This document shows, piece by piece, positions 25,862-47,100 of a stretch of 64,000 bases of DNA. Below the pieces are notes generated by a model, which saw only the letters and a list, made by a program, of their open reading frames with translations, was not told the DNA's origin and did no database searches. Position 1 is the first letter of the stretch. The number at the start of each line of letters is the position of its first letter. Origin of the DNA: an uncultured Bacilli bacterium (lineage in GTDB: Bacteria > Bacillota_I > Bacilli_A > RF39 > UBA660). The stretch is taken from positions 13,037 to 77,036 of the forward strand of contig CANPXE010000001.1 of assembly GCA_947585665.1 (NCBI GenBank). The letters are read 5' to 3'. The translations under genes were made by a program, and so were the position numbers.

Positions 25862-25863
25862 AT

Positions 25864-25940
<77 letters not shown>

Positions 25941-25952
25941 ATAAATTATTAA

Positions 25953-26045: not shown

Positions 26046-26050
26046 AAATA

Positions 26051-26139
26051 TGGTGCCTAAGGCCGGACTTGAACCGGCACGAGGGTTGAATCTCGCAGGA
26101 TTTTAAGTCCTGTGCGTCTACCAATTCCGCCACTCAGGC
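26051..26139 (-). tRNA. tRNA-Leu (UAA)
   Basis: Anticodon arm CAGGA-CTTAAAA-TCCTG with a long variable arm. 89 nt. Confidence 0.9.
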
Positions 26140-26170
26140 ATGATACACGTCACTTCCACGTGTCTACTTA

Positions 26171-26199
26171 ATTGTATCTTAAAATCCTTTATTAATCAA
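26171..26199 (-). promoter_or_regulatory. Putative internal promoter for the distal seven tRNAs
   Basis: The minus strand reads TTGATT-17 nt-TACAAT inside the 137-bp gap of the tRNA array. Confidence 0.4.
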
Positions 26200-26244
26200 G
26201 CATTTTTTGATTTTTATTATATTTTAAGAACAATTTTTTATAAA

Positions 26245-26263
26245 AGCCCTGATAATCAGGGCT
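26245..26263 (-). other. GC-rich stem-loop inside the tRNA array (weak terminator or processing site)
   Basis: AGCCCTGA-TAA-TCAGGGCT forms a perfect 8-bp stem. On the minus strand only TTTAT follows, so termination is probably partial. Confidence 0.4.
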
Positions 26264-26276
26264 AATACTTCAAAAA

Positions 26277-26352
26277 TGGTGTCCCGTTGGAGATTCGAAC
26301 TCCAGACCCTTTGATTAAAAGTCAAATGCTCTACCGACTGAGCTAACGGAAC
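26277..26352 (-). tRNA. tRNA-Lys (UUU)
   Basis: Anticodon arm TTTGA-CTTTTAA-TCAAA. 76 nt. Confidence 0.9.
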
Positions 26353-26355
26353 AAG

Positions 26356-26430
26356 TGGCTGCCTCGGCTAGACTCGAACTAGCGCATGTCAGAGTCAAAG
26401 TCTGATGCCTTACCGCTTGGCTACGAGGCA
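26356..26430 (-). tRNA. tRNA-Gln (UUG)
   Basis: Anticodon arm TCAGA-CTTTGAC-TCTGA. U1-A72 pair, 75 nt. Confidence 0.9.
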
Positions 26431-26437
26431 ATCTATA

Positions 26438-26521
26438 TGGTGGAGAGAGATGGATTCGAACCATCGAACCCGAAGGAACAGATTTACAGTCTGCCGCGTT
26501 TAGCCACTTCGCTACCTCTCC
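26438..26521 (-). tRNA. tRNA-Tyr (GUA)
   Basis: Anticodon arm GCAGA-CTGTAAA-TCTGT with a long variable arm. 84 nt. Confidence 0.9.
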
Positions 26522-26528
26522 AAATAAA

Positions 26529-26604
26529 TGGTGCCGAAAACAGGACTTGAACCCGTAACCTATTGATTACAAATCAATTGCTCTACCAATTGAGCTATTT
26601 CGGC
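26529..26604 (-). tRNA. tRNA-Thr (UGU)
   Basis: Anticodon arm ATTGA-TTTGTAA-TCAAT. 76 nt. Confidence 0.9.
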
Positions 26605-26609
26605 ACTAA

Positions 26610-26686
26610 TGGTGGGCGATATAGGACTCGAACCTATGACCCCCTGCTTGTAAGGCAGGTGCTCTAACCAACTGAGCTAATCGCCC
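26610..26686 (-). tRNA. tRNA-Val (UAC)
   Basis: Anticodon arm CCTGC-CTTACAA-GCAGG. 77 nt. Confidence 0.9.
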
Positions 26687-28390: not shown

Positions 28391-30874
28391 TTAAATAGTT
28401 TTTTTACTTTCGCCAACTGTTGAAGCTTTAAGAATACTAACAGCACTCTTACGATGTTCTTGTGGCTTACTATCATCTAATAAATCAGTAATAGCTTTTT
28501 TGAAGTCGATTTCATTATCATTAACATCTCTAACACCTGATTCAGATAAAGTACTAGCAAGACCTTCGACAGCTAATTCATATTCTTCTTTTTTAGTTTC
28601 GCTAACATTCTTTAAAACTTGTCCCAAATCTACTTTTTCTTCTTCATATTGATCCCATTCATCAATCATTTCCCTTGGAACAACACCAAGTGTTGATAAC
28701 AATTCATTAATTACATATTTTCTAGCTTTCGTTACTTGAGCATCAGCTTTTTTACTAGTAGCTTCTCTAGTTTCACTAGCTAATTTATCATGTCTTTCTT
28801 CAGAATCTCTTACATCAATACGGTGTCTACCAACAGCATATTTCTCTTCTACTTCATCAAAATCAACGCCCTTACTTCTAAGAGATGATAATTCTTTCTC
28901 AGAGTCAGGATCATCTAAGATTTTACCATATAATTCTCCCCAAAACTTTGAATATTCATCACTATCATCAACTACTTTTGGAGTTGGTTTTACAACTGGT
29001 TCTTCAGTTTTTGGAGCATCTACGTTTTCTGGTGTTACTACAGGTGTATCAACAGGAGTAGCAGTTTCTTTCTTTGGTTCAGATTCTTCACTATTAGCAG
29101 TAGGACCTTGAACTACTTTTTCATCATCTTTATCATAATCCAACAAGTCACTTACTCTTTGAACTAAAGTTGCTAATTCATTGTCTATTTTTTCAATTGC
29201 TTCCTTACTTTTATCATCTGATAAACCAGATTTTTGTAAACTTTCTTTTAATTCAGCAAGTTCTCTAATTCTATCATTTAATTTTCCAAATGTCATTTTA
29301 TTATCAGTTTCTTTTTCTTTATCAGTTTCTTCTGGTTCTTCAACTTTTGGACTTTCAACAGCTGATGTTACTTGTTCTTCCACTGGTTTCTCATCGGACG
29401 GTGCATCTTCTTGTTCATGTGAAGAACTATCATCTTTTCCATCTTGAGTTGCTTCTTTTGGTGTCTTACCCTTAGCTCTTCTATTTTGAATTCCAGCATC
29501 AACTTGTGCATTTTTCACTTCTACATCATCCTTTTCTTCTGCATCTACTTTTACTTTTTCAAAAATCTTACCAAACGTATCAATTGTTCTTCTTACTAAA
29601 GCAAAATTATTATCAATAACATTTTTCAAAACTTGTTGTTTTTCAGGACTCAACTCACGACTTGCTTTTACAAGTAGAGTATCTTCACCATATCCATTTC
29701 TTACTGCATCATAAATAAATGCAAAAACATCATTATTTTCTTCTCTAAAAGATGCTTTCTCCTGCCAAAGTTGAGCAAAAGAAATATAGTCTACCATATC
29801 ATTATAAGCACTAACTTTTTCTTCACTGGATAAATCTGTATTTTTCATTATTTCTGCTAACATATCTGGATTAAGATATTTCTTTCCATTATTAGCTTTT
29901 GCATATAAAACCAATTTTTGTTTACTTTTATCACTATTTTGTAATAAGTCAACGCCAAAGATACTATTATTTTTCATACAATAAGCTAGCATAGCCATTG
30001 CTTGTTCTTGAATTGAAATATCCCTTTGTTCTTGCTTTTTAGCTTTCTTTCTAGAAAGTCCAGCATCAACTTGAGAATTCTTTTCAACTGTTTCATCTGA
30101 CTCTTTAGCAGGCTCTACTGGTGTACTTGTAGTATCAACTGGTGTAATATCAGGAGTAGGAGCAGTTAATTCAGAAACAACAGAATCTCTTACATCACCA
30201 ATATCAGATAAAGATGCAAGCATAGCAGCTTCTTCTTTTCCCATTGTCTTTTGAGCAGCTTCTTCTATATTATCACCACTAGGATTTAATCCCACTACTT
30301 CACGAGCATTTTTGGCAACAACTTCAGCTATTTCTTTTTCTAATTTTTCTTGAGCGTGCTCTTTATCCTCTTTAACTTTTTTCATATATGATCTACCTGC
30401 TGAGCTCAAATATTTTAAAGGGCCAATTAAGAAAGGTGGTACTTTAAGAGCACGAGCTGCTGACTTCTCAATATCTTTATCAATTTTGAACTTGATTTTT
30501 TGGATATCTTCATCAAAAAGCAAAATTTTAACAGCGCTTTCTGCTAAACGTTTTACTTGTGCATTATACTCTTCTAATTTGTCTTTAACATCAGTAAATT
30601 CGCCTTTACTATCAGCTTCTGACTTAGATTCATTAACCTCAAGAGCAATTCTACGCAACTCATTATAATCATGATTATACTTTTCAAAAGCTTTTTCCAA
30701 ATTACCACTTTTTCGATTATCCAAAAAGCTTGCTAAAGTATCACCAGTCATTTTTAATCTACTTGGTTTTTTCAAATGTTTAGCACGCGTAGGATCCTCT
30801 GTTCTTCTTACAAGATCAGGTTCACTTTCTCCTTGTGGTTTCACAAACCCAGATTGGTATTCTTCTTCGTTCAT
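28391..30874 (-). CDS. Large acidic coiled-coil-rich cytoplasmic protein of unknown function (827 aa)
   Basis: AAGGAGG RBS 9 nt before ATG. No TM or signal peptide. Internal duplicated motif K-N-[SA]-Q-V-D-A-G-[LI]-x-[RN]-[KR]-[KR]-A-K. No family recognised. Confidence 0.7.
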   Translation of the reverse strand: MNEEEYQSGFVKPQGESEPDLVRRTEDPTRAKHLKKPSRLKMTGDTLASFLDNRKSGNLEKAFEKYNHDYNELRRIALEVNESKSEADSKGEFTDVKDKLEEYNAQVKRLAESAVKILLFDEDIQKIKFKIDKDIEKSAARALKVPPFLIGPLKYLSSAGRSYMKKVKEDKEHAQEKLEKEIAEVVAKNAREVVGLNPSGDNIEEAAQKTMGKEEAAMLASLSDIGDVRDSVVSELTAPTPDITPVDTTSTPVEPAKESDETVEKNSQVDAGLSRKKAKKQEQRDISIQEQAMAMLAYCMKNNSIFGVDLLQNSDKSKQKLVLYAKANNGKKYLNPDMLAEIMKNTDLSSEEKVSAYNDMVDYISFAQLWQEKASFREENNDVFAFIYDAVRNGYGEDTLLVKASRELSPEKQQVLKNVIDNNFALVRRTIDTFGKIFEKVKVDAEEKDDVEVKNAQVDAGIQNRRAKGKTPKEATQDGKDDSSSHEQEDAPSDEKPVEEQVTSAVESPKVEEPEETDKEKETDNKMTFGKLNDRIRELAELKESLQKSGLSDDKSKEAIEKIDNELATLVQRVSDLLDYDKDDEKVVQGPTANSEESEPKKETATPVDTPVVTPENVDAPKTEEPVVKPTPKVVDDSDEYSKFWGELYGKILDDPDSEKELSSLRSKGVDFDEVEEKYAVGRHRIDVRDSEERHDKLASETREATSKKADAQVTKARKYVINELLSTLGVVPREMIDEWDQYEEEKVDLGQVLKNVSETKKEEYELAVEGLASTLSESGVRDVNDNEIDFKKAITDLLDDSKPQEHRKSAVSILKASTVGESKKTI

Positions 30875-30892
30875 AACCAATAACCTCCTTTA

Positions 30893-31597: not shown

Positions 31598-32296
31598 TTA
31601 TTCTATTATATCAGATTTTTGACTATTTAGATAATTTTCTGGTACTTTGCCAGAAATCAGTTCAACAATTAAAGGTACTTCTAATTCAACTTTGACATAA
31701 CGATTAGAAAAAGGAAATATGATTTTCTCGTAAACGTTAATTTCAATACTAATTTCGAATAAGATACTATTTATACCATATTGTCTAACATTTGTCAAGA
31801 TTTTTGTTTCTATTTGTCCACTTAAAAGAATTTTTACTGGTATACTTGGACCAATACTAAAAAGTATAGGATTAGAAAAAGCAATACCTAATGGCACATT
31901 TATATACAAGCCACTTTTCTTACCGACCATATATCGATTAAAAACATCTGAATACTTATTAATCAATTCAACATTTCCCTTATCAAATTCATTAAAATAG
32001 TACAAAATAATACTGTTACTCTTTCCAAGAACTTCATTCACTTTTTTTGTCTTTAAATCAATTAAGTCAATTTCACCACTTTCATTTTTATTCACGACAA
32101 ACAAATCGTCTAATGTAATATCGTTCCAAAAATTATCTTCTAATATTTTCCTAATCAATATTTTTGATACCTTATTAACCTCTTCTGTAACATAATTTGA
32201 CATCTTATCATCAATCATTTTTCCAAACATTGAAACTGATAAAATAGTAAAGATAATCAGTGCCAAATATACAAATATTATTTTTTTCTTAAACAT
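31598..32296 (-). CDS. yunB: Sporulation protein YunB-like
   Basis: 232 aa with N-terminal TM. Size and architecture, and the neighbourhood (yutD-like adjacent), fit YunB. From memory. Confidence 0.5.
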   Translation of the reverse strand: MFKKKIIFVYLALIIFTILSVSMFGKMIDDKMSNYVTEEVNKVSKILIRKILEDNFWNDITLDDLFVVNKNESGEIDLIDLKTKKVNEVLGKSNSIILYYFNEFDKGNVELINKYSDVFNRYMVGKKSGLYINVPLGIAFSNPILFSIGPSIPVKILLSGQIETKILTNVRQYGINSILFEISIEINVYEKIIFPFSNRYVKVELEVPLIVELISGKVPENYLNSQKSDIIE

Positions 32297-32341: not shown

Positions 32342-33148
32342 CTATATAATTCCCATTTTTTTCAAAACAAACAAACTAATAGTTGCAAGAATTACAATAA
32401 CAATTAAAATAATCAAAACGATCATTTTTGTTTTATTTTTATGTTCCTCATATTCATCTTCGCCAATGTCAAAATCATGTTCTGTCAAATCCATACTACG
32501 TGTATAAAATGAATTGACTAAACGACCATCTTCTGTTTTTATTTCATCGACAGTATCTTCTTTTTCTTCCTTTTTAGCAAGAATTTCCTTAGCAATTTCT
32601 TCTTCTAAATTGATGTCTTCGCCAACACTTAATGTACTTGTAGCCATCAAATCACTCATTAAATCTTTATCATCCTCTTCTTTAGCTTTTTCAAGCAAAT
32701 CCCTAGGAAGATTTCTCGAAGTAATGGTATCAATTAATTCTCTAATTCCTTGCTCTTCTAATTCTTCATCTAATTTTTCTTTTTTAGAAATATATTTCTT
32801 GTTCAAGTCATCTAAAATACTATATTCAGCATTTTGAAGATTACGCTTTTTTTCAACTTCTTCAGGAATATTACGATTTTTCTTTGCTTCCTCTAAGACA
32901 GAATTAATATCATAAACCTTTGGTTCTGAAGAAGAAGTATCTTCTTGTTCAATATTTCTAGTTTGATCAGAACGTTTTTTTACAGGCATTGTTTCCTCTT
33001 GTTTATTCTCACCAGTAAGACTTTCCATTTTACCATAGCCAATTTGACTATTTATTTCATCATATAAATACTTATTTTTATTACTGCGGCTTGATCTAGG
33101 TTCAGTTGATATATCTTCTTGAACGTATCTTGTAGTTCTTCTTTGCAT
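32342..33148 (-). CDS. Acidic protein with C-terminal TM anchor (hypothetical)
   Basis: 268 aa, Glu/Lys/Asp-rich. The last ~25 aa are hydrophobic (MIVLIILIVIVILATISLFVL). Confidence 0.6.
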   Translation of the reverse strand: MQRRTTRYVQEDISTEPRSSRSNKNKYLYDEINSQIGYGKMESLTGENKQEETMPVKKRSDQTRNIEQEDTSSSEPKVYDINSVLEEAKKNRNIPEEVEKKRNLQNAEYSILDDLNKKYISKKEKLDEELEEQGIRELIDTITSRNLPRDLLEKAKEEDDKDLMSDLMATSTLSVGEDINLEEEIAKEILAKKEEKEDTVDEIKTEDGRLVNSFYTRSMDLTEHDFDIGEDEYEEHKNKTKMIVLIILIVIVILATISLFVLKKMGII

Positions 33149-33466: not shown

Positions 33467-33488
33467 AAAAGCCAATTGCTCGGCTTTT
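33467..33488. terminator. Bidirectional stem-loop terminator
   Basis: AAAAGCC-8 nt-GGCTTTT with A/T runs on both sides. Lies between the convergent ferredoxin gene and the TasA-like operon. Confidence 0.55.
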
Positions 33489-33544: not shown

Positions 33545-35710
33545 CTAAGGCAATTCTATTTCATATGCCGTTTTTGGTGTTTTTCCATCTCCACTTTTGA
33601 TTATAACATCTGCATTTAATGTAATAGTTGGCTTTACAGCAAAATCATGGTCATATGGTTCTTGAAATATACCTTGAGTTTCTGACTCAAATGCTCCAAT
33701 CATTGGCCAGCTACCATTGCCATATGGAGTCATGGTAGCCGTCTTATAATCATGTACATCATTTCCTCCTAATGGATATGCAAATAATTCACCAACAATT
33801 GGAAGTCCAACATACCCTTTCCATGTTTTATCTGTTTTTACACAATCTTTTGTTGTTTCAGTAGTATTTTTCTCTTTACATATAGTATTTTTATAACTAC
33901 CAATAGTACTATCAGTAGGGACTTTTTGAACATTATCTACATAATAAGTATCTTCAACTAAATATTTTTTTATACCTTGTTGTTCAAGCCATGTGCCATT
34001 TAAATATGCTCCCCAATAAGCTTCATTTTCTGAATTAACAACATCTGCATAACTATGCATACTCATCTCACCAAATTTCTTTGTAATAACATTACCATCA
34101 GAATCTTTTACATAATTAGCACTTTTTAATTTAGTTACAAGTTTTCCTTCTTCTTTATGAGTGTTTACTATACGATATAACATATCGTTAACCATAACAA
34201 GTTCTCCTGGAGTTCTTGTATTTATTTGCTCCCCAGGTTGAGCCGCTTTTATATCATCTAATAAAACAAATGGATCATATTGTGTTCCTGTACCACTAAA
34301 TTTAACATCGGCTTTTAAAACTACCATAGGTCGAACTCCAAAAGCGTTATTTGGCACAGCCCATCCTGTTATTGTTCCATCATAGTGAATTCCAGAAACA
34401 GTTTTAGGAGGATCATTCTGTGGATCAGAATATGATGATAACCACCAAGCATGCCCAAGATTTAAAAAACTATCTTTACTATAACTGGCAGTCTTGCTAA
34501 ATTCGTAAGGATTCATTAAACCAACGGGGGCTTTTGGTTGTTGAAGCGGAGCAACATAGCACCAATCATACCTATTTGATATATCCCAAGTAGCATCTTC
34601 CACTAATATGTTTTTATGATTATATAAAGTATCTAAAAAATCTTCATTTAACCATTGTTTTATATATGAGTCATCAAAGAATCCATTTTCACCAAAGTTT
34701 ATAGCAGATAAAATATTTTCCGAAATCATTTTTACTGATCCATCATTTAATATTTCTGTTATTCTCCACATATAACCCGAATACCAAACATAATTAAAAT
34801 TCAAACAAGCATTAGTCCCCTCAAAATATGTATGATAAGGTGGTGGATCATTAACTCCACCACTACCATTACAAGGTGAATCAGTTGTTAATAACAAAGA
34901 GTCATTACCATTATAATTACATGTTTTTTTATTATCAGCAAGTTCCATAACCTTATCCGCTAAAGTTCTATATTGAACAACGACATCACCTGAAACATTT
35001 TCAACTTGTAAAAGATTATTGTCAAATGTAAACGTTGTATTACTTCCATCAACAAAGACTTTAATATCTTTTTGTAAAAGGTCACCTGGAAATTGAACTT
35101 TTAAAACATCGCCTTCTAAAATTTCTTTAGGGTATTCTTTTGTATTCGTATTAATTAAAAAGTTTGTATACGTTACTGTATGAAATTGTCTAAAATCAAA
35201 ATCAAGAGTTATGTTGTACTGTGAGTTATTAGCATTATATTTATTATCCTTATATTTAATCGTAATATAAATATCTTTTTGAATTCCTGATTTACAAGAA
35301 GACTCATCACATATTTTATCCTTTAAAGAATATCCTTCACCCAATTCGTAATCCAACTCTTCTGGTAAACCAGTTATTTTTAAAATTCCCATTTCAACAT
35401 TACCTAAATTAGTAATTTGTACGCGATATGTAACAGTTGAATTTTTTTCAGGCAAAACTATCCCTGAACTAATACTTTTAACATTATAATCTTCCCAACC
35501 AGAAGCACCTTCATTAGAAGTTCCATCGACACTAACACCTGTAACTCTTATATCAGCTTCTATTCTAACTGTTGCAGCAACATTACCAATTTCCAATGTC
35601 TGTTTAAAAAAAGAATAACCAAGCGAAAGCATAAACACAGAAAAGACTAACAAAGTTGTCGTTAGTCCATAAATATACTTTTTGCCACTATCAGTTTTAT
35701 ACTTTTTCAT
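33545..35710 (-). CDS. Large secreted protein: SipW-type signal peptide, TasA/camelysin-like N-domain, C-terminal modules with W..GVRP motif
   Basis: N-terminus ...FMLSLGYS|FFKQTLEIGNVAAT parallels the TasA signal (..GTWA|AFND..). LPEKNSTVTYRVQITNLGNVEMGILKI parallels TasA LKPGD....F.F.N.GSL. C-terminal AWWLSS...AFGVRPMVVLKADV and ...FAVKPTITLNADV form two modules. Start set at the ATG with a GGAGA RBS. Confidence 0.65.
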   Translation of the reverse strand: MKKYKTDSGKKYIYGLTTTLLVFSVFMLSLGYSFFKQTLEIGNVAATVRIEADIRVTGVSVDGTSNEGASGWEDYNVKSISSGIVLPEKNSTVTYRVQITNLGNVEMGILKITGLPEELDYELGEGYSLKDKICDESSCKSGIQKDIYITIKYKDNKYNANNSQYNITLDFDFRQFHTVTYTNFLINTNTKEYPKEILEGDVLKVQFPGDLLQKDIKVFVDGSNTTFTFDNNLLQVENVSGDVVVQYRTLADKVMELADNKKTCNYNGNDSLLLTTDSPCNGSGGVNDPPPYHTYFEGTNACLNFNYVWYSGYMWRITEILNDGSVKMISENILSAINFGENGFFDDSYIKQWLNEDFLDTLYNHKNILVEDATWDISNRYDWCYVAPLQQPKAPVGLMNPYEFSKTASYSKDSFLNLGHAWWLSSYSDPQNDPPKTVSGIHYDGTITGWAVPNNAFGVRPMVVLKADVKFSGTGTQYDPFVLLDDIKAAQPGEQINTRTPGELVMVNDMLYRIVNTHKEEGKLVTKLKSANYVKDSDGNVITKKFGEMSMHSYADVVNSENEAYWGAYLNGTWLEQQGIKKYLVEDTYYVDNVQKVPTDSTIGSYKNTICKEKNTTETTKDCVKTDKTWKGYVGLPIVGELFAYPLGGNDVHDYKTATMTPYGNGSWPMIGAFESETQGIFQEPYDHDFAVKPTITLNADVIIKSGDGKTPKTAYEIELP

Positions 35711-36911
35711 TTTTATCATTCTCCATATCAACAGCTTTTAACTGAAGTAGATAAACATCATTATTGTTTTTTACATATAAGTAGCATTTTTGATGCTTGG
35801 TAATTTCATAATACATTATTGGTACTTGTAAATTATCATGAACATCTAATAATTCTTCAAACTTAGCAATTTTTATTATATTGCTATTAGAAAAATCAAC
35901 TAATGTTTTACTTTCAACAATTAAACGGTCATATTCTGTCAATAATTTCTTAACATATTTGTCATATGTACTACTTTTAACATGTAACAATTGCAATAAT
36001 TTAATAATTTTAACTAAGAAGTAAATAGCTATTAAAGAAACAACTATTAATAGTATTAAAGATTCATCTGTCAATATTTTCCATCCCTTATTAACCAATG
36101 TTTGAGTAGTTGGTGTAATTTCAACATCAGCAATATCTATAGTAATTGATCTTTTTGATAATGGAATAGTAACGGATATTTCTTTATTTTCACCAAGTTT
36201 TATTTCTTTTTCATTATTACTGTTTTGTTTATGTACAATTAAAGAAACTTTAAGATAACTTACAGTATCCAAACCATTAAGATTTTTAAAATTATTAGCA
36301 ATACTATTGTATTTATCGTAATCTAAAGAAATAGTTTCTTTAATATTGATATCGTTGGCATTTTCCATTTTTTTAGTCTTTTTATCTAATAAATTATAGT
36401 TTTCACTATAAAAGACATTTTTACCATCACTATCAAATATTAATAATTCACCGACTATATTATAATCAAAATCAATATTACTCTTTTTTTCAATATCAAA
36501 ATTATAATTATAATCAATTTCAATTTTATCAATTAAACTAGTAACATAAGCATAATTATGATTATCTAAATCTTGTTTTCCTAAATATTTAAGTCCTGGA
36601 AAAGAGGAATTTGCTTTTAGCCAAACACGATAGTCAGCTACCCCATTTTCGGTATAAGAGACTGTTTTCTCTTTTTGATAACGAATAGAATAATTAAAAA
36701 GTAATGCAACTAATAAAAGACATAAAAGAAGAAAGCAAGAGTTAATAATAAGTCTTACATTATAACTGATATATCTTTTAGGCTTTTCTTCTACTTCAAT
36801 ATTCTTTATCGTTTCTTTTACGGTTTCCTTTTTTACATTTTCCTTTTTTACATTTTCCTTTTTATCATTTTTACTTTTATGATTTTGTTTATTTTTTCCA
36901 GAGTCCTTCAT
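35697..36911 (-). CDS. Two-TM protein, DUF5305-like (signal-peptidase-associated)
   Basis: Lys-rich cytoplasmic N-terminus, TM1 (SCFLLLCLLLVALLF), ~210-aa extracytoplasmic domain, TM2 (LILLIVVSLIAIYFLV), ~100-aa cytoplasmic tail. AGGAGGTG RBS. DUF5305 assignment is from memory. Confidence 0.5.
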   Translation of the reverse strand: MKDSGKNKQNHKSKNDKKENVKKENVKKETVKETIKNIEVEEKPKRYISYNVRLIINSCFLLLCLLLVALLFNYSIRYQKEKTVSYTENGVADYRVWLKANSSFPGLKYLGKQDLDNHNYAYVTSLIDKIEIDYNYNFDIEKKSNIDFDYNIVGELLIFDSDGKNVFYSENYNLLDKKTKKMENANDINIKETISLDYDKYNSIANNFKNLNGLDTVSYLKVSLIVHKQNSNNEKEIKLGENKEISVTIPLSKRSITIDIADVEITPTTQTLVNKGWKILTDESLILLIVVSLIAIYFLVKIIKLLQLLHVKSSTYDKYVKKLLTEYDRLIVESKTLVDFSNSNIIKIAKFEELLDVHDNLQVPIMYYEITKHQKCYLYVKNNNDVYLLQLKAVDMENDKNEKV

Positions 36912-36927
36912 AAAGTTGCACCTCCTT

Positions 36928-38052
36928 CTATAATTCATTTAAAATTACTGTTGGTAAACCAATATATGGAACTTTAACATTAACTACTCCCACAATCATA
37001 TCCTCAGTAATAGGATATCCATCTTCTATTTCATTGGCATCTCCCTTAGTATAGAAATAATCTTCACCATTTACTTCTAGCTTATTGACAAGCCGATGCA
37101 CAATTAAAATATCGTCATATTCGTATGCAATTATTTGTCCGAGTTGTAAATTTTTAGTATTATCAATTTTTTCAATTATGACAACATCACCTTTTTTAAT
37201 CTCTGGAGTCATTGATCCACTAGCAATCGCAACAGCATAATAGTGAAAATAACCAGATGTTATATAAACTAAAAAAGCAATAATTAACCCAGGGAAAATA
37301 AGGGATCCTAATCTTCTTTTAGCTACATCCTGTGTTGGAATAGAACGTCGGTCTTTTTTTAAGAAATTTCCTACTCGATAAGCATAAATGGTTGGTAAAA
37401 TCAATTGTACTACCGAAATTATATATTCATTAGGATTAGGTACAATTGGTATTATATATGAATATATTTGTGTCACAAAAGAATACAACAATACAGGTTT
37501 ATATCCAACCTTATACGTTACATATGATAAAGCAATATTAGTACTTATTGCTGGCAATAATCCCAATGCTAAAAATAAAAAGACATCATAATTACTAGAA
37601 AAAGGAACTAAATATTCACTGGTAAAAACATCAAATAATATAAAAACAATAATTGTTGTTATAATTAATGTTTTACTTCCTTCAGCTTTTCTAATCATCA
37701 TATAACGCAATAATTCTTTTAATGTGACAATTATAATAATTGGCAATAAAAAATTAAATATACCCGAAATAGTAAAATAACTATTTATTTTAGAAAAAGT
37801 AAAGATAATTCCTGATAAATACCACAAAAAGAAAAATATGAGTAAAAATATTAAAGTATCTAATATAATATCTTTTTTATAACGATATTTATCTTTTTCA
37901 TAACCAAATAAAATTTTAAAAAGCAAAGTAAATACTAATAAGATTATTACAAAACGATATTTACCTAATATACTTGATACAAAACTACTTAAAATTAAAA
38001 GTATTGAAAAAAAGATTTGAAAAATTAATAACCTTTTATAACCCTTTTTCAT
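36928..38052 (-). CDS. sipW: SipW/Sec11-type (S26B) signal peptidase I fused to an N-terminal ~8-TM domain
   Basis: C-terminal 125 aa has ASGSMTPEIKKGDVVII (catalytic Ser), ILIVHRLV (catalytic His, ER/archaeal type) and FYTKGDANE. The first ~240 aa are eight hydrophobic helices with no Cys or His. Confidence 0.75.
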   Translation of the reverse strand: MKKGYKRLLIFQIFFSILLILSSFVSSILGKYRFVIILLVFTLLFKILFGYEKDKYRYKKDIILDTLIFLLIFFFLWYLSGIIFTFSKINSYFTISGIFNFLLPIIIIVTLKELLRYMMIRKAEGSKTLIITTIIVFILFDVFTSEYLVPFSSNYDVFLFLALGLLPAISTNIALSYVTYKVGYKPVLLYSFVTQIYSYIIPIVPNPNEYIISVVQLILPTIYAYRVGNFLKKDRRSIPTQDVAKRRLGSLIFPGLIIAFLVYITSGYFHYYAVAIASGSMTPEIKKGDVVIIEKIDNTKNLQLGQIIAYEYDDILIVHRLVNKLEVNGEDYFYTKGDANEIEDGYPITEDMIVGVVNVKVPYIGLPTVILNEL

Positions 38053-38117
38053 TCTATTCCTCCTAAATAGTCTTGTGCAAAAATATTAAGAAATAATATC
38101 TCAATATTTTCATCTTA

Positions 38118-38780
38118 TTAGCCAGCGTCACTAGAGCTGTAATTTAATGTAATCGCACCAAAATTAACAGTGAAGTCACCATCAGCTCTTTCTGCATCTG
38201 GTTTATATGTTAAAGTTACAACAACTTTTTCATCTGTCTTCTTAGCTAGTTTTTGTTCAGTTATACTAGCTACTGTTGATGTTGCAGTATTATGGCTTCC
38301 AACTTCTACTTTTAACTCAAATCCTTTACAAGCTTTTTCTACCAATGCAGGTGTTGTTGTAGATAATGCTTCACATTTTATGTTACTTGTTTCATCTACA
38401 TTAGAGTAAATGATTGATTTCAAATAAGCATCATATTCACCATCATTTCTTACAAAAAACTCATATTTAATAGATTGTCCTGGAGCAGTAAACGTCCCAC
38501 CGATATTAGTGATAGTCTTATCATCACTAATAGTTGCTTGATTTCCTGAAAAGCCGTCAACTTCACCTGGCGTTACCTCTGGAGTAACTTCTCCTTTTTC
38601 GACTTTACTTGCAGTTGTCGAAAATTTAACAGCAAATGCACTATCACTTGGGTTTACTGTACTACTAGATGCATTTATAGTTAGTTGACTAGTGAAAGCA
38701 GCAAATCCAACTGACAAACCGACAATTGCAACTACCAAAGCAATAACAGCTATAACTTTTGTTCCTCTATCTCTTTCCAT
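38118..38780 (-). CDS. TasA/camelysin-like secreted protein with SipW-type signal peptide
   Basis: MERDRGTKVIAVIALVVAIVGLSVGFA|AFTSQLTINASS mirrors TasA ...GTWA|AFNDIK. FTAPGQSIKYEFFVRNDGEYDAYLKSI matches the TasA-fold PG....F.....N.G motif. AGGAGG RBS. Confidence 0.65.
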   Translation of the reverse strand: MERDRGTKVIAVIALVVAIVGLSVGFAAFTSQLTINASSSTVNPSDSAFAVKFSTTASKVEKGEVTPEVTPGEVDGFSGNQATISDDKTITNIGGTFTAPGQSIKYEFFVRNDGEYDAYLKSIIYSNVDETSNIKCEALSTTTPALVEKACKGFELKVEVGSHNTATSTVASITEQKLAKKTDEKVVVTLTYKPDAERADGDFTVNFGAITLNYSSSDAG

Positions 38781-38816
38781 ATTTTCACCTCCTCTATCTT
38801 AATTATATCTAATACA

Positions 38817-38846
38817 AGTATACCCCCCCCAATTCAATTGTGTCAA
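38817..38846 (-). promoter_or_regulatory. Putative promoter of the TasA-like/SipW operon with a G8 tract in the spacer
   Basis: The minus strand reads TTGACA-caattgaattGGGGGGGG-TATACT with an 18-nt spacer. About 35 nt of leader precedes AGGAGG and ATG 38780. Confidence 0.55.
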
Positions 38847-40824: not shown

Positions 40825-42960
40825 TTACATGTCAGTAATAGTTGGATCAGTTGGAACAGGTATACTACCATCAGGTTTAGGTATTTCTACTTTAGAGAAA
40901 CCAATTTTATCATCGATACCTTCCATCATATCATCAAAGTCAAAGTCGTCAATAACAGGATTAACATCTAATGGATCAACATTATCTAAACTTAAATCGT
41001 ATAAAGAACTTGTATCACCAGATGTCATCATATTTTCCATAGAAGGATCATTCTCTAAAACATTAGAATTTAGTTCGGCAACACCTGTGTCTGTAGTAGA
41101 CTCTGTTACAGTATCAGTTACAGCTGATGTAACATCAGAAGTTACATCACCAGTTTCAGTAGTTGGTGCTGTACTTACATTTTCTCCTTCACCAATGTCA
41201 GGAATCTCTACATGATTATTATCATCAGTAAGAGGTTCTTCTTCTGGTGCAGGATTTATTGTATCACCTTCAATAGTTCCAGGATCAGTTGTTTCTGGTG
41301 GTTGAACATCACCATTTGCATCAGGAAGTGGATTTCCTTCTTCTGGTGCAGGATTTATTGTATCACCTTCAATAGTTCCAGGATCAGTTGTTTCTGGTGG
41401 TTGAACATCACCATTTGCATCAGGAAGCGGATTTCCCTCTTCTGGTGCTGGATTTGTTGTATCACCTTCAACAGTTCCAGTATCACCTACTTCTGGTTGT
41501 TGAACATCACCATTTGCATCAGGAATTGGTTCCGTACCATCAGCATTTGGTTCAGTAACATTTGAATCACCAGTTTCCTCAGGTGGTGTAAATGTATCTT
41601 CACCAGTATCTATTTCAGGTTCTGGAACTTCTCCTTCGTCATCTGGCACAGCTTCCCAATCACTTTCTCCTCCTATTTCTGGCTCAGGTTCAGTTGTACC
41701 TGGATCATCTGTAGGTGGTGTTTCTTCTGGTGGTTTTTCTTCAGGCGTTTCTGAAGGTTTCTCTTCAGGATTTTCGGTAGGTGGTGTTTCTGGTTGAGTT
41801 TCTTCAGGCTTTACAGCAGGTAGTGGATCTGGTTGTTGAGTTGGCGATGGATTAGTACCACCACCAGAAGGATTTGATGGCGGTATATATCCTATATTAT
41901 TAGATGTACCTCCAGCACTTGTATCATTTTTTTCAGAATCAGAAGATTCTTCTTCATTTGTCTCATCTTTTTTGTTTTCTTCTATCATAGAAAGAATTAT
42001 AGCGCTATTTAAGCCAGGGTATTTTTTTATTAAATCATCATACTCAGTGAGTGTGCTCCACCTATCACTATCGTCATCTTTTATATATTTATTATAAAAC
42101 GACATTACATCATTTTTAAATTCTTCTACTTCTTTTTCATCTAAAAAATAATAATAATAATCAAATTTCTTATCATCGTCAATATCATCTAAATCATATG
42201 AACCACCTGTTAAAGTATAAATATCACTATCAGTCTTAAGAACTAGATTAATAATATCATCAAATGTTAATATATAAGAGCTTAAATTCTCACTTGCTGT
42301 ATTAGCCGTATTAGATATTGCTGTAGAATATTGAGTAATTTCACCACATGTCATTCTATCTGCAGAATCTTTTATATTTAAAAGATTAGAAGAAATTTTA
42401 CTACATTCACCTTTTATATTTAAAAGAGTTGATTCTGTAGTATCTCGAATAAGAAAATCTTTATCTGCTAAAGCAACTACTTTACCTGTTTCAAAACTAA
42501 CACTAGGAAATTCATCTAACTGTTCAGCAATTTTTAATGCATCAAGTTCTCCTTGTGTCTTAGGTGTTAGTTCTGGTGGTTGTTGAGGCATCCTCACTCC
42601 AAGATGTTCATTTGCATAGTTGCACTGTTGGTAATATGTATTCCATGCAGAACACAAAGCATCCCATTCATCTTGTAAAGTTTGATCATCTACTGGAACT
42701 ATTTGATTTACTGTGGACACTATATTACTACAACAACTTGCAATATTCCCTAAAGTATCAGAACCCAAAACATTATCAATTTTACCTATAATTTCATTAA
42801 TTTTATCATAACCTAATTCTGTATGCCACTCATTACCCAAATCTCCTATGTATTCAGTCAACGTACCATTTATAGTAGATATGTCTTCAATATAACCTTT
42901 TATATTTTCTAATTCGTTTTTAATAGTTTTAAATTCATTTTTTGTAACTTTCCTTTTCAC
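40825..42960 (-). CDS. Acidic Pro-rich 711-aa protein; candidate T7SS substrate with WXG-like N-terminal helical domain
   Basis: GTG start after GGAGG. N-terminus ...LTEYIGDLGNEWHTELGYDKINEI... is paralogous to the 43162..43812 product. The centre and C-terminus are P/E/T/D-rich with 33-aa tandem repeats. No signal peptide or TM. Confidence 0.6.
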   Translation of the reverse strand: MKRKVTKNEFKTIKNELENIKGYIEDISTINGTLTEYIGDLGNEWHTELGYDKINEIIGKIDNVLGSDTLGNIASCCSNIVSTVNQIVPVDDQTLQDEWDALCSAWNTYYQQCNYANEHLGVRMPQQPPELTPKTQGELDALKIAEQLDEFPSVSFETGKVVALADKDFLIRDTTESTLLNIKGECSKISSNLLNIKDSADRMTCGEITQYSTAISNTANTASENLSSYILTFDDIINLVLKTDSDIYTLTGGSYDLDDIDDDKKFDYYYYFLDEKEVEEFKNDVMSFYNKYIKDDDSDRWSTLTEYDDLIKKYPGLNSAIILSMIEENKKDETNEEESSDSEKNDTSAGGTSNNIGYIPPSNPSGGGTNPSPTQQPDPLPAVKPEETQPETPPTENPEEKPSETPEEKPPEETPPTDDPGTTEPEPEIGGESDWEAVPDDEGEVPEPEIDTGEDTFTPPEETGDSNVTEPNADGTEPIPDANGDVQQPEVGDTGTVEGDTTNPAPEEGNPLPDANGDVQPPETTDPGTIEGDTINPAPEEGNPLPDANGDVQPPETTDPGTIEGDTINPAPEEEPLTDDNNHVEIPDIGEGENVSTAPTTETGDVTSDVTSAVTDTVTESTTDTGVAELNSNVLENDPSMENMMTSGDTSSLYDLSLDNVDPLDVNPVIDDFDFDDMMEGIDDKIGFSKVEIPKPDGSIPVPTDPTITDM
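41236..41532. repeat. Three tandem 99-bp repeats inside the 711-aa gene
   Basis: Period of 99 bp, verified at three landmark positions (GGTGC at 41250, 41349, 41448). Copies 1 and 2 are nearly identical, and copy 3 has diverged. Each encodes EEGNPLPDANGDVQPPETTDPGTIEGDTINPAP. Confidence 0.9.
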
Positions 42961-43161: not shown

Positions 43162-43812
43162 TTATCCAGTAACTGTTGAATTGTTTAAAGATCTAGAAAC
43201 ATTTTCTCTATCTTGATCAACATCACTATTAAATGTGCTCATAAATGTTTGAAGAGTTTCATCAAGTTTTTCTTCTACATTTTTTATAGTCGTTTGAATA
43301 ACTACTCTTGGATTAACATCTCCATCAGCACGATAACCAAATTGTTCATCACTTTCTACATAAGGAACAATATTATTTAAGTAAAGTCTCAATTTATCAA
43401 AACCAGCTTTTAATTGATTCTTTACTTCTTCCAAATCAGCATCATCAATATGTGGTCCATCTGGATCATCAAAGTTAATTACTTCAGTAACAATTTCCTT
43501 TTCACTTAATCTATCTAATTGGAATGGTTGTCCTCCTTGTGACATCATATATTGGTTAGCACTAGATAACATAGTTAAATATTGTCTATTAATTGTTTTT
43601 CTTGCTCCATTAAGAAGAGAAGAAACCTTTCCTGCTAACTCATTAGTTTTTGCATATCCCAAAGGTGAATGCCAATGTGCACGCAAATTTGTAAATGCTG
43701 TTTCCAAATCACTTGTACCAGTAGTAACATCTAATCCTACATAGTTCTCAGAAACAGTTTGCATTGCTGTTGTAAAATTTTTAGGTACTAATCCTGAATT
43801 TTGTAGACCCAT
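43162..43812 (-). CDS. 216-aa protein, candidate T7SS substrate/accessory with WXG-like N-terminal domain
   Basis: ...LETAFTNLRAHWHSPLGYAKTNELAGKV... aligns with the N-terminus of the 711-aa protein. No signal peptide. GGAG RBS 8 nt before ATG. Confidence 0.6.
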   Translation of the reverse strand: MGLQNSGLVPKNFTTAMQTVSENYVGLDVTTGTSDLETAFTNLRAHWHSPLGYAKTNELAGKVSSLLNGARKTINRQYLTMLSSANQYMMSQGGQPFQLDRLSEKEIVTEVINFDDPDGPHIDDADLEEVKNQLKAGFDKLRLYLNNIVPYVESDEQFGYRADGDVNPRVVIQTTIKNVEEKLDETLQTFMSTFNSDVDQDRENVSRSLNNSTVTG

Positions 43813-43923
43813 TTTTATCACTCCATTCTTTTATTTTATTTATTTAGGGCTTTCTATCCTACAAATATAATATAAACTAATTTTTTTTGTTTATCTACGC
43901 TTTTGCTTAAATTTTACATAAAT

Positions 43924-44190
43924 TTACATTTGTTTTTCAAATAGAATTAATTCTGAAGCATTTCTTATATCTGTTGTTATAACAATTTCATTATTTAAAT
44001 ATATGCGACCAGTATTTTTATTAATTAAAACATATTTTGATAATTCTTCTTGTGACAAATGACTCATTTCAGGAACAGTTTTTAACAATAATTTTTTTAT
44101 TTTGTATACTGTTTCGTTAACTGGTATAAAGAAATCAGCACTAAAATTCATCTTAGGAATTAATAATTTTATTAAAACTTTATTCTTCAT
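43924..44190 (-). CDS. esaB: YukD/EsaB-like ubiquitin-fold T7SS protein
   Basis: 88 aa. VLIKLLIPKMNFSADFFIPVNETVYKIKKLLLKTV resembles EsaB/YukD (..FD...P....I..LI..). Overlaps the essC stop by 11 nt. Confidence 0.6.
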   Translation of the reverse strand: MKNKVLIKLLIPKMNFSADFFIPVNETVYKIKKLLLKTVPEMSHLSQEELSKYVLINKNTGRIYLNNEIVITTDIRNASELILFEKQM

Positions 44191-47100
44191 TATCGTTCAC
44201 CTCATCCTGTGATAAAAAGTCAAGTATTTTCATCAAAGTTGGTTCGCCATCAATTACAGCATATCCCATATCATTTTTTATTGGCCTATTATATTCATTA
44301 CTATAGGCATCTGTTTTTATTATATTTTGTTCACCAAATCCTTTACCTATCCATATTCCGTATGTACTTGAGCCAAATGATTTCTTATACCAACCATCAT
44401 ATAATACTTCATCAACCTTGTCACCAACTCCAATAATAGCAATCTTTTCATATGCTTTTATTTTTTCAACAAAGAGTGTAAGAACTTTATCATCTACTTC
44501 GCCTTTTAAAGAATTCAAATCATACATTAATAGAACACCATATTCTTTTGAACCTTCGGCAATTTTTTTGTCAATATAAGTTGTTAATTTAGGAATCATA
44601 TCATTAAGATTGCTAGTATAATAATTAGGGTATTCCGTTTTTTCAATTCCTAATTTTTTATTTACATCAAAGATAAAGATATTACAATTTGGAATTAATT
44701 TAATAGTTTTTAAAAGACTTTGAATAAATATATTAATATCTTTTATCTTTTTACCAGCAATTAAAGTAGAACGACTTTCTAAGAAATCAAATAATATAGG
44801 TGAAATATTTGCTTTTGAAAGTCCTACTGGTACAGCACTTAATTTTTGAATAAATGGCTTTACATGTTCTAAACGGACGTGCGCAGGAAGAGTTGGTATT
44901 TTAGGTGCTGAAGTAGGATTTTGTTGCTTAACTAATTGAATAAACTTATCAACAAAAGCATTGAACTCTTCTGGTGTTTTTGTTATCGATCCTGTTTGAA
45001 ATTCATGTAGTTCACCATTGTTTAAGATACCGCGACCAGGATTATCTCTTGGAACAATTTGTTTCTTTGAACCTAATACATAGCCATATTCAAATTGATC
45101 TTTCAATTTATACGTATAAATTTGTGTAAAGTTTTGTGAAACCTTTTGTCGAACAGAATTAGTAGCAAGTCCAGATACAACAAAGACAATTCCATAACGG
45201 GCTGAATCTCTTGTTATTTCAGGCATTGTTTCATAAGAATCTTGATTGGCTTCAGCATAAGCATCATAGTTATTAATAATTATTACTTTTAAAGGTAGTT
45301 TCTTACCACTACTCTTTATGTAGTTCATATAAGATCCACCATAATCTGTGAATAATTTTTTACGTTTAACAATTTCATCACGAATCATTTTTACTAAACT
45401 ATTATATTTTTCTGTTTCTTCGGCAAAAACCATTCCACCAACTTGTGGTAGTTTTGAGAATTTGCGAAGCGACTCAGAACCATAATCAATTATATAAAAG
45501 TTAACCTCTTCAGCAGTATGAAGACGAGATGTTGAATATATTAAAGCATTAAAGAACATTTCTGAGTCACCATTATCATTACTATATGTAATAGCACTAC
45601 CATCTTCAAAGAAATTGTACTTAACAATTCCTTGTTGTTGTAACTCAGGAGCATCATATTCACCAATAATTGCTTCAACTTGATATGGCACAGGTCTAAC
45701 ATTATATTTATTGATTATTTCATCAATGACAATATCTTGGGGAATATTATCAAGCCATAATCTCTTAGCTTTAACATTATTAATATTTGAAACTTCTATT
45801 ATGTTTTTCATAACCGCAGCTAATTGCTCACCTTGAGCTTCAACTTTAACGTCATTAGTTTCTTCAACACTTCTAATTATATCAGCACAATCATTGATGT
45901 AATCAACACTTTTATCAACTTGTTTAACAATCCTATCAGAAGGATAATATTTAGCTCCACACCAACCAGATTGACCTAGAGCATATATTTCATCATATCC
46001 AACTTGTAAGAAATAGCGTCCAGCTTGGGAAATGTGAGCAGCATCAGGATGTTTTAACATTTCATTACTATCTGGTTCACTAGCAACTTTTAAACAAACA
46101 CGGAACTTTGTATTTGACCAAATTTGATCATTGACAACACCACTTGGTTTTTGGGTTGCCAAAATTAAGTGAACTCCTAAACTACGTCCAATACGCGCAA
46201 TACTAATCAAGTTGTCCATGAAATCTGGTTGTTGCGCTTTTAATTCAGCAAACTCATCACAAATGATGAACAAATGAGGAATTGGTTCTTTCAATCTACC
46301 ATCTTTAAAATGCCTTTGATATTTATAGATGTCCATGGTACTTTCACCTAAGGCATCACGAGCTTCATTAAACACTTTTTGACGACGTTTAACTTCGCTA
46401 TCAATACTTACTAAAGTTCTATCCATCTCAGCTTTATCGAGGTTTGTTATAGTACCTGCCAAATGTGGAAGAGTTACTCCTGTCAACTTATTTTCAAAAG
46501 CAAGTGCAAGTCCTCCACCTTTATAGTCAATCAAAATGAAAGCAACATCATTAGGACTATAATTAATACACATTGATAAAATATAGGTAATGATAAATTC
46601 AGATTTACCAGAACCAGTAGTACCAGCAATAAGTCCATGTGGTCCATGATATTTTTCATGTAAATCCAAATACATTAACTCTTGTTTAGCATTAACACCA
46701 ATTTCTGCTTTTAAAGAAGTTGTCGCATCATTATTATTCCAACGATTTAAAATATTCAATTGTTCAACTTTACCAACTTTTTCCATTTCTAAGAAACTTA
46801 TAGAATTAGGAAGAGACCCTACCTTTTCTTCAAACTCAATTGGTAAATTAGAAACAATTCTACTAATATCCATATAATTAATATTTGAACAAACTTCATC
46901 AGTAAATTGAATATACTCTTGGCTATCAAAATTACTCTTCAATAAACCGGATTTTGAAGATTCAGAAACATCAATATAATTGTTACACTTACTTGGTAAC
47001 TTACTCAAACTTTGAGCAACAATTATCATACTGAAACCTAAATTATTATCATTTTCAGCAATATTATTGACGAATTCATATTCTTTAACACGATCATAAT

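Follow-up and report, generated by a model that had tools for sequence, protein, structure and literature searches.

A signal peptidase and DUF5305 operon of uncultured gut Bacilli as a candidate donor-strand fibre locus

What do the products of four clustered genes in an uncultured Bacilli bacterium form, and how far do they resemble fibre systems that have already been described? The genes, here called A to D, occupy positions 33545-38846 of a 64,000-nucleotide stretch of contig CANPXE010000001.1 (the window). Gene A (38780..38118, minus strand; 220 aa) encodes the presumed major fibre subunit, gene B (38052..36928, minus; 374 aa) a polytopic signal peptidase I (SPase I), gene C (36938..35697, minus; 413 aa when counted from the first ATG, 404 aa if the start is the ATG at 36911) a DUF5305 protein, and gene D (35710..33545, minus; 721 aa from ATG) the presumed tip or nucleator adhesin subunit. 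The mechanical open reading frame (ORF) of D runs to a TTG at 35731 (728 aa), seven codons further upstream; the 721-aa form is used because homologues begin at MKK. A and B are separated by 65 nt, B and C overlap by 11 nt or leave a gap of 16 nt, and C and D overlap by 14 nt, so that the gene order, place and short or overlapping junctions given in an earlier note on this DNA, made from its letters alone, are all confirmed, with every ORF on the minus strand.

The answer favoured here, with a probability of roughly 0.6, is that the operon encodes a self-contained, chaperone-free fibre of the TasA/AbpX/Tafi type, in which A would form the shaft and D a lectin-like head at one end; the reading draws on sequence and on analogy, the architecture of the locus matching that of validated donor-strand fibres (Tafi and AbpX). 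B and C very probably act as a dedicated processing pair for A and D. The operon is not categorically new: given the literature on TafD/TafG and on AbpX loci, it is a variant of SPase I + DUF5305 fibre loci, which were described in 2025-2026. The earlier note read it as a distinct, uncharacterised variant with a membrane protein that the Bacillus paradigm lacks. At the level of the system that interpretation is largely right, although the architecture (multi-TM SPase I, DUF5305, major subunit, tip protein) has already been reported for haloarchaeal Tafi and AbpX loci.

The processing pair and its presumed substrates

Judged from its sequence, B is an endoplasmic reticulum (ER)/archaeal-type signal peptidase I with Ser-His(-Asp) residues, not the Ser-Lys dyad of the P type. 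Residues 257-372 match NCBIfam TIGR02228 sigpep_I_arch with 84.3 bits (cut-off 51.85), and the protein lies above the Pfam gathering scores for PF00717 and PF10502. B also matches the human proteins SEC11C and SEC11A (2e-9 to 7e-8), the SGSM, VHR and KGDAN stretches of B aligning with SGSM, VHR and KGDNN of SEC11C; S280, H319, R320 and D338 are invariant in 28 B homologues with identity down to 30%. Against the SipW equivalog NF046067 B scores 62.1 bits, below the cut-off of 190; by this measure it is SipW-like in type, not a SipW orthologue. Hydropathy and the positive-inside rule predict nine transmembrane (TM) helices with N-in/C-out topology: eight N-terminal helices, then an anchor helix (248-264) and an extracytoplasmic catalytic domain (265-374), right after which the chain stops, without a C-terminal TM helix. 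The proposal that a SipW-type peptidase is fused to a polytopic membrane domain is thereby borne out.

The eight-TM domain itself has no Pfam match at E<=1 in a scan of the whole protein. Within residues 1-245, G50, E113, R116 and several Pro and Gly residues are invariant; conserved motifs are GFEKD.HRY (with G50) and KE.LRY (with E113 and R116), both in cytoplasmic loops, as well as GYKP and an external PI.PNPNEY loop. A CPBP/Abi-type or exosortase-type domain was rejected from the alignment, in which no His or Cys motifs are conserved. Among 1319 homologues of B, the best 120 listed are all 366-398 aa long and cover 94-100% of the query; on these sequences the fused eight-TM and peptidase architecture appears very stable.

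Gene C encodes a match to PF17231 (DUF5305; 30.7 bits, gathering score 29), a family also recognized in homologues of C from other loci (a paralogue in locus L064, 32.2 bits, and a homologue in locus L001 with a precomputed match). By hydropathy the protein begins with a cytoplasmic, Lys-rich N-terminus and spans the membrane twice, at TM1 (63-81) and TM2 (294-312), with an extracytoplasmic domain of 212 aa between the two helices and a cytoplasmic C-domain of 101 aa after them; this agrees with the two-TM, DUF5305-like protein of the earlier note. Its treatment there as an unrecognized membrane platform is out of date, since SPase I + DUF5305 pairs are known (PMC11821415; PMC12337348; 10.64898/2026.01.04.697558). 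By analogy with TafG, C is presumed to be an accessory subunit of peptidase B (PMC11821415; PMC12337348; 10.64898/2026.01.04.697558); in the literature, the DUF5305-peptidase partnership rests on inference from fusions and synteny only.

The presumed substrates share an N-terminal layout. A comprises a signal peptide (1-27) with predicted cleavage at VGFA|AF, a conserved amphipathic strand AFTSQLTINASSSTV, and a beta-sandwich (about 51-215) with a conserved Cys pair; D has a signal peptide with predicted cleavage at LGYS|FF and the strand FFKQTLEI, followed by an A-like beta domain (54-182), a second, small one (196-247) and some 460 aa of C-terminal region. The strings ..VGFA|AFTSQLTI.. in A and ..LGYS|FFKQTLEI.. 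in D, said earlier to mirror the cleavage layout of TasA, are both present and do so. The two families have the common signature L-S-[LIV]-G-[FY]-[AS]|A-F-x-x-x-L-x-I, kept in 139/145 A-family and 43/47 D-family sequences. In these 139 and 43 sequences the positions before the cut read L(-6), S/T(-5), [LIV](-4), G(-3, 100%), F/Y(-2, 100%) and A/S(-1), and those after it A(+1), F(+2, 93-97%), L(+6, 93-98%) and I/V(+8), to which the A-type logo adds A(+12), V(+14) and P(+16); at +4, A has N/S/Q/T and D has N/Q/S, with E in 6% of D. As read from sequence, this is a canonical SPase I site by the -3/-1 rule, with a strand of alternating hydrophobic positions behind it. The invariant columns of the A family are G25, F26, L33, I35, N112 and L120, four of the six within residues 25-35, and in A the conservation with alternating hydrophobicity reaches +16. 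Among the ORFs of the window, the pattern G-[FYWT]-[ASWY]-[AFY]-[FY] occurs within the first 80 residues of A and D only. A type IV pilin reading of the N-terminus of A was rejected, as no G|F(T)LxE prepilin motif precedes the hydrophobic segment.

AlphaFold2 (AF2) monomer models place this segment outside the folded domains. In A (mean predicted local distance difference test, pLDDT, 90) a signal helix (6-28) is followed by coil, with a mean of 51 over the 31-40 block, and then by an all-beta domain (51-215); in D (mean pLDDT 86) a helix (11-36) is followed by residues 36-49 below 50 and by the beta domain 54-182. The domains themselves score about 90. An unpacked N-terminal segment of low confidence in both models is compatible with, and would be expected of, a strand that binds another subunit. 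Mature A is acidic (isoelectric point 4.64; family median 4.44), like AbpX-type subunits.

Neither A nor D has a Pfam or NCBIfam match above the curated cut-off or a significant match to PDB sequences (phmmer/hmmsearch), and their relationship to each other was assessed with profiles. Aligned with hhalign, the A profile and the profile of the D N-domain match with a probability of 96.8% (E 2.6e-10, 152 columns); a hidden Markov model (HMM) of the D N-domain finds A at 3.4e-11, and the A HMM finds 31/50 D-type ORFs. From these sequence comparisons we conclude that D is probably an A-like module, a distant paralogue, fused to cargo, most of the signal coming from the N-terminal 45 residues. The internal motif PG/K....Y.[FV].[VI].N.G that had been proposed for both proteins fared unevenly: it is present exactly in A (PGQSIKYEFFVRNDG), and in D from the Y onward only (TYRVQITNLG). 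As a TasA-specific feature it was rejected; the PG...N.G stretch gives weak, generic matches to Ig-like families (Cep192_D5, HYDIN/VesB Ig-like and DUF7507) and is therefore not specific to TasA.

Inheritance of the module and its variable ends

Identifiable homologues of A are confined to uncultured gut Bacilli. A word-indexed database holds 125 relatives, all unnamed or 'hypothetical', those with a label coming from 'Bacilli bacterium' or 'bacterium' metagenome-assembled genomes (MAGs). A profile search with the A family reaches 3,973 representative clusters (50% identity) at E<=1e-3 and 679 at E<=1e-30; none of the matches examined has a Pfam assignment, and the best 150 of the 3,973 offer no bridge to a named family.

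Synteny was surveyed in one-genome-per-species GTDB contigs, in which 115 stretches encode A relatives; 80 loci were kept, and ORFs were called in all 80 and searched with the four window proteins. All 80 belong to MAGs of uncultured bacteria from the guts of humans (Hadza and others), rabbits, chickens, ruminants and mice, and their labels read Bacilli, Mollicutes, Tenericutes, 'Mycoplasma sp. CAG:877' or Candidatus Faecisoma merdavium. Several loci (L009, L010, L044, L045, L050, L064 and others) are deposited under Bacteroidaceae/Muribaculaceae MAG names and are probably mis-binned or mis-labelled. The fused peptidase gene B and the DUF5305 gene C adjoin A in 58/80 loci, B standing beside A always with C, and all four genes are found in 45/80. 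A-B-C-D is the commonest order (34 loci), and D-B-C-A occurs in one clade (4 loci); the remaining loci are mostly cut by contig ends, or hold orphan or tandem A genes in genomes with a complete module elsewhere. Flanking genes vary between genomes. At least two genomes (L064 and L071) carry a strongly diverged second set, A2-B2-C2-D2, a few kb upstream of the main module. That the cluster might not be conserved as a unit had been named beforehand as a possible refutation; instead, the synteny (58/80 with A-B-C, 45/80 complete), the varied flanks and the duplication of whole sets indicate, at the level of sequence, that the module is inherited and duplicated as a unit. In L064 the second set (2626-7788) consists of A2 (203 aa, GFA|LYSTTLNI), B2 (386 aa), C2 (342 aa, DUF5305 32 bits) and D2 (787 aa); in L071 it lies at about 3234-5428.

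A-type genes are also found in arrays. One contig (CANQHF010000027.1, L065:3229-11187) carries ten tandem, diverged A-type genes with 35-76% pairwise identity, all keeping the signal and strand region, with no peptidase gene on the contig, and arrays of three to four A copies precede A-B-C-D in other genomes (L048, L053 and L070). Such arrays could represent a repertoire of shaft-subunit variants that allows antigenic or functional diversification. A further locus (L003:6658-7855; ERZ28019011 k141_906461) has the order A-C-B without a D-type gene after it, and directly upstream a 216-aa CalY/TasA-type protein (...SGGTYAYFA) and a type IV pilin-like gene (N_methyl, TIGR02532) are encoded; this is the only locus with an N_methyl pilin gene near the module.

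The C-terminal two-thirds of D are common to hundreds of PF19789 (DUF6273) proteins, some of which begin differently, with a type IV pilin N_methyl motif, a dockerin or a ricin-type lectin. D itself falls below the PF19789 gathering score (14.4 bits versus 23.5), its close homologues carry PF19789, and the D model matches DUF6273 phage proteins in BFVD (Foldseek, E 7e-10 to 1e-6); the region is best described as DUF6273-related. DUF6273 has been described as C-type-lectin-like and as a domain of phage receptor-binding proteins that is diversified by diversity-generating retroelements (DGRs) (PMC10743442); the gut IgA protease ThomasA has it at its N-terminus (PMC12402451). DGR targeting of the region in D was considered and rejected, as a search of window 20-50 kb gave no template/variable repeat pair.

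D-type N-domains elsewhere are followed by different C-termini, in proteins of 363-1328 aa that are mostly unannotated, a few with Laminin_G_3, CBM_X2, Flg_new or DUF6273; A-type N-domains, too, can bear C-terminal extensions, such as a BspA-type leucine-rich repeat (LRR) region in protein P0496. A fixed N-domain with varied C-termini is the pattern of a conserved polymerization or stalk module with interchangeable binding heads. The earlier proposal of one small subunit and one large, multidomain adhesin is upheld by the A-like N-domain of D (96.8%) together with this variable C-terminus. The C-terminus of D2 in L064 contains a CLIEGTKVL... stretch with a weak Hint-domain match (PF05203, E 1e-3, below cut-off), which hints, in sequence, at polymorphic-toxin-like cargo on a pilin-like module.

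Proposed fibre assembly and alternative readings

If the operon encodes a fibre, A and D would be exported by the Sec pathway with an N-terminal signal anchor, and B, with its DUF5305 partner C, would cut after G-[FY]-[AS], that is at VGFA|AF in A and LGYS|FF in D. The cut would free an amphipathic strand (F+2, L+6 and I+8, in A also A+12 and V+14), which would enter the beta-sandwich of a neighbouring subunit by donor-strand complementation; A would polymerize in this way into a non-covalent fibre. D, with an A-like polymerization domain and a lectin-like C-terminus, would join one end as an adhesin or a TapA-like nucleator; since it keeps the full strand signature, it could donate a strand to the first A, as a nucleator would, and not only accept one. 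As one possibility for anchoring, the last, uncleaved subunit might conceivably be held by its signal anchor. A logic of major subunit and tip is seen in the genes: A comes first after the promoter-like site and is followed by a hairpin, tandem A arrays reach 10 copies, and the C-termini of D are swapped.

Several observations weigh against this reading. Foldseek finds 0 matches in the PDB at E<=1e-3 for the AF2 model of A or D. The list for A consists of generic sandwiches and jelly rolls, with the TasA fibre 8aur_A at rank 43 (E 0.032, TM-score 0.30) and weak matches to the PapG pilin domain (rank 39) and FimA (rank 44); none of AbpX, AbpA and Tafi is in the top 50 for A or D, and among these absentees are the AbpX entries 9SJ2 and 9RHP, which are present among the PDB sequences and whose presence in the Foldseek library was unchecked. 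Peptidase_M73 (PF12389) is matched by 0/50 A-family members at E<0.1, and a profile of A (A1) finds no match among PDB sequences. Alignments by hhalign of the A and D-N cores with TasA, AbpX and a TasA/CalY profile (9 sequences from Bacillus plasmids) are non-significant (E 0.05-0.3): A1 aligns with the TasA/CalY profile at E 0.054 over the PG..N.G motif only, and with AbpX at E 0.009 over the signal and strand only. Even the match between A and D falls to 70% (E 3.9e-5) without the signal peptide and to 12% (E 0.0026) when only the core is compared. In AbpX and TasA an acidic residue at +4 (D4) coordinates Ca2+; here that position is N/S/Q. The module encodes no anchor (no LPXTG, SLH or TapA homologue), and all homologues come from uncultured MAGs.

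The hhalign negatives carry little weight, since the positive control, the TasA/CalY profile against AbpX, two groups assigned to one superfamily in the literature, also failed on the core domains and aligned the signal/strand region only (probability 72%). The TasA-like jelly roll predicted for A or D by the earlier note nonetheless found no significant core match with Foldseek in the PDB, Pfam or hhalign. Putative membership of A and D in the TasA superfamily (TasA/CalY, AbpX, AbpA, Tafi, 0406 thread and CanA) rests on the N-terminal signature and on the architecture of the locus, not on fold. With a residue at +4 that is not acidic, strand docking clamped by Ca2+ is not expected.

The lack of significant similarity between the A and D cores and known donor-strand pilins suits a different reading, in which the operon is a secretion and maturation module for surface or secreted proteins that do not polymerize; A and D would then be monomeric adhesins, lectins or wall-associated proteins, their N-terminus serving as a peptidase recognition element only. 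The best PDB match of D, a domain of the non-pilus Streptococcus pyogenes adhesin Epf (4es8; E 1.7e-3), which is also seen for A at rank 12 (E 0.012), points in the same direction, and the many A-type N-domains fused directly to binding domains are compatible with a simple export or stalk module. This reading is unlikely, although it survives better than the other alternatives: strand-like conservation to +14/+16 exceeds what SPase I recognition normally needs, the N-terminal segment is unpacked in both monomer models, tandem small A paralogues and a major-plus-tip gene logic are typical of polymers, and the SPase I + DUF5305 loci that have been studied experimentally are all donor-strand fibres (PMC11821415; PMC12337348).

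A bolder version of the fibre reading, which we likewise regard as improbable, makes the A family a distinct Gram-positive class of donor-strand pilin with a fold unrelated to TasA, its polymerization coupled to cleavage on a platform of B and C. The eight-TM domain of B would be the assembly site that hands the freshly cut strand to the next subunit, and lectin-like, LRR and toxin-like tips would be interchangeable. If true, the peptidase would be a pilus polymerase, in logic like a sortase or an usher, and the operon a modular adhesion organelle for reduced-genome gut bacteria.

Retention of the N-terminal segment, leaving A and D as type-II membrane-anchored proteins with B a general signal peptidase that is merely linked, is very unlikely. 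AF2 does draw the segment as one long helix (A 6-28, D 11-36), several records label the MAG lineages Mollicutes or Tenericutes, and a separate SPase-like ORF (204 aa) was seen in one locus only (L030), no search for a general SPase I having been made. G(-3) and A/S(-1), however, are 97-100% conserved right after the hydrophobic core, as in a canonical SPase I site; B keeps synteny with A and C in 58/80 loci and the module is duplicated whole, which is not expected of a housekeeping enzyme; and the extra eight-TM domain and DUF5305 partner mark the specialized type of AbpX and Tafi loci.

The borders of the module bear on how the four genes are expressed. At the 5' end, the closing hairpin of an rluB-like gene is followed by a promoter-like site, TTGACA-18-TATACT (38846..38817, minus; 11/12 matches, the best of the scanned region), a GGAGG and the ATG of A; such sites are no commoner across the region than in shuffles, so this one counts by its position only. 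At the other end, a bidirectional terminator-like hairpin (33467..33488, both strands; stems of 9 and 7 pairs, with a T-run after each) separates the end of D from a convergent ferredoxin gene. With these elements at its borders, 33545-38846 plausibly delimits one transcription unit. The A-B spacer contains an AU-rich hairpin of 13 bp followed by a U-run (38079..38111, minus; minimum free energy -14.9 kcal/mol, z = -2.2, with 5/200 shuffles folding equally well), possibly a partial terminator or attenuator that raises A over B-D, as would fit a major subunit, on weak evidence. G+C content is about 29% throughout, without a compositional break.

The neighbours of the module are housekeeping or sporulation genes: rluB, a D-Ala-D-Ala carboxypeptidase gene, the ferredoxin gene and yunB. 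The YunB sporulation protein is encoded at 31598-32296, 1.2 kb downstream of the module, between ORFs for an 829-aa, highly charged Glu/Lys-rich protein (28391-30880, minus) and an acidic protein of 268 aa with a TM helix at its C-terminus (32342-33148, minus), both without a Pfam match; these two ORFs sit between the module and a cluster of 12 tRNA genes (25510-26686, minus; Pro, Arg, Phe, Asp, Met, Ser, Leu, Lys, Gln, Tyr, Thr and Val). On the upstream side, a 1520-aa FtsK/SpoIIIE-family protein with two ATPase stretches and of EssC-like size (44180-48742, minus) stands beside unannotated ORFs at 40825-42960 (minus) and 43162-43821 (minus), which include a 711-aa Pro/Glu/Thr-rich protein. 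Within the 711-aa ORF are three tandem 99-nt repeats (41238-41534; 99% and 85% identical to the first) that encode a 33-residue Pro/Asp/Glu/Thr-rich unit. A Pfam scan of the small ORFs flanking the FtsK/SpoIIIE gene gave no matches; these genes, which start 1.3 kb upstream of the module, may form a type VII-like secretion locus.

That the same assembly chemistry serves endospores, giving an appendage or coat component of the spore and not a vegetative or biofilm fibre, is highly improbable. In its favour, the PDB entry 5of1 names Bacillus subtilis TasA 'Spore coat-associated protein N', yunB lies nearby and related contigs carry SpoIIID and CotJB/CotJC genes. Against it, genomes differ in whether sporulation genes are linked to the module, the promoter-like site is of sigma-70/sigA type, and lectin-like and LRR tips suggest binding to a host or to glycans.

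Relation to known fibre systems

What distinguishes the operon among SPase I + DUF5305 loci is a subunit family that is large and unannotated and shows no detectable TasA-like core, a nine-TM peptidase lacking a C-terminal TM helix, the absence of a Ca2+-type acidic residue and of an anchor or regulator, and modular, lectin-like tips. Should the fibre reading hold, 'Mollicutes-like' gut Bacilli (Mycoplasma sp. CAG:877, Ca. Faecisoma), which are common in human and animal guts, gain a candidate adhesion or biofilm organelle, and the unannotated A family (3,973 clusters at E<=1e-3) gains a testable function. The variable ends (DUF6273, concanavalin-like, carbohydrate-binding module and BspA-type LRR) point to the binding of host glycans or partner cells. 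The SPase I + DUF5305 fibre system would be extended from extremophile archaea and a few cultured Firmicutes to the mammalian gut, and four genes without an anchor or regulator offer a compact model for the roles of the eight-TM domain and the DUF5305 partner.

Chaperone-usher pili of Gram-negative bacteria provide a functional analogy only: a non-covalent, Ig-like polymer with an N-terminal donor strand and a two-domain tip adhesin made of a pilin and a lectin domain. They differ in that the module here has no chaperone or usher, belongs to a Gram-positive-type envelope and has the signal peptidase as its sole dedicated enzyme, and the similarity is not significant.

The tapA-sipW-tasA locus of B. 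subtilis and the sipW-calY/tasA locus of B. cereus likewise place an ER-type SPase I beside its substrates, and the mature N-terminus of TasA is also A-F: TasA reads ...GTWA|AFNDIK, PDB chain 8AUR begins AFNDIK, and the plasmid TasA/CalY proteins retrieved read ...GGGTYA|YFSD. By analogy with TapA, D would be a second, larger substrate with the same signal that could nucleate or anchor the fibre. Unlike SipW, B carries an extra eight-TM domain and scores below the NF046067 cut-off; a DUF5305 partner is present here and absent in Bacillus; A and D lack a Peptidase_M73/TasA match; and the gene order and the lectin-type tip differ. In L003 a protein with the canonical CalY/TasA signal (GGTYAYF) is encoded beside the same B/C pair.

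In haloarchaeal Tat-fimbriae (Tafi) the pilins TafA and TafE are accompanied by the SPase I TafD and the DUF5305 protein TafG (PMC11821415; PMC12337348); when tafD is deleted, the major pilin TafA is no longer processed and the fibres are lost (PMC11821415), and assembly in Natrinema is reported to proceed by strand donation (PMC12337348). As in the operon described here, a dedicated SPase I and a DUF5305 protein are encoded beside major and minor pilins and a variable tip or adhesin, and the enzyme genes are conserved while the structural genes vary; here B shares more than 50% identity across its listed homologues, relatives of A share 30-60% with the window protein, and the C-termini of D are swapped. 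Tafi pilins use twin-arginine translocation (Tat) signals, whereas A and D have Sec-type signals. In TafD, with four TM helices, the catalytic domain is N-terminal and a further domain follows at the C-terminus, whereas B has an N-terminal eight-TM domain and a C-terminal catalytic domain; Tafi loci also include the transcription regulator TafB, and the four-gene module has no regulator.

AbpX loci occur in archaea and bacteria; their dedicated SPase I has ten TM helices, and they also encode an accessory protein of the DUF5305 family, minor subunits resembling AbpX and predicted tip proteins (10.64898/2026.01.04.697558). In contrast to these loci, the A and D cores have no significant sequence or fold match, B has nine predicted TM helices instead of ten, without a C-terminal one, the module is without an SLH or LPXTG anchor and without cyclic di-GMP or two-component genes, and the host belongs to a lineage of uncultured gut Bacilli known from MAGs only. 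The likenesses extend over the whole module: AbpX loci (see also PMC12518558) share with it a small acidic subunit, a subunit-like tip protein, a many-TM SPase I and a DUF5305 protein, the last consisting in AbpX loci of an extracellular beta-sandwich, two TM helices and, in the cytoplasm, an alpha/beta domain (10.64898/2026.01.04.697558). The AbpX precursor of Pyrodictium (P. abyssi) reads ...GLTYA|QWSETLSLSATIST (supplement of 10.64898/2026.01.04.697558), and W2, L6, L8, A10 and I12 of AbpX are buried in the acceptor groove (10.64898/2026.01.04.697558). TYA|QWSETLSL of AbpX and GFA|AFTSQLTI of A both have an aromatic residue at -2, a small one at -1, an aromatic one at +2 and hydrophobic ones at +6 and +8; save for the non-acidic +4, GFA|AFTSQLTINAS in A and GYS|FFKQTLEIGNV in D fit the TasA/AbpX layout residue for residue.

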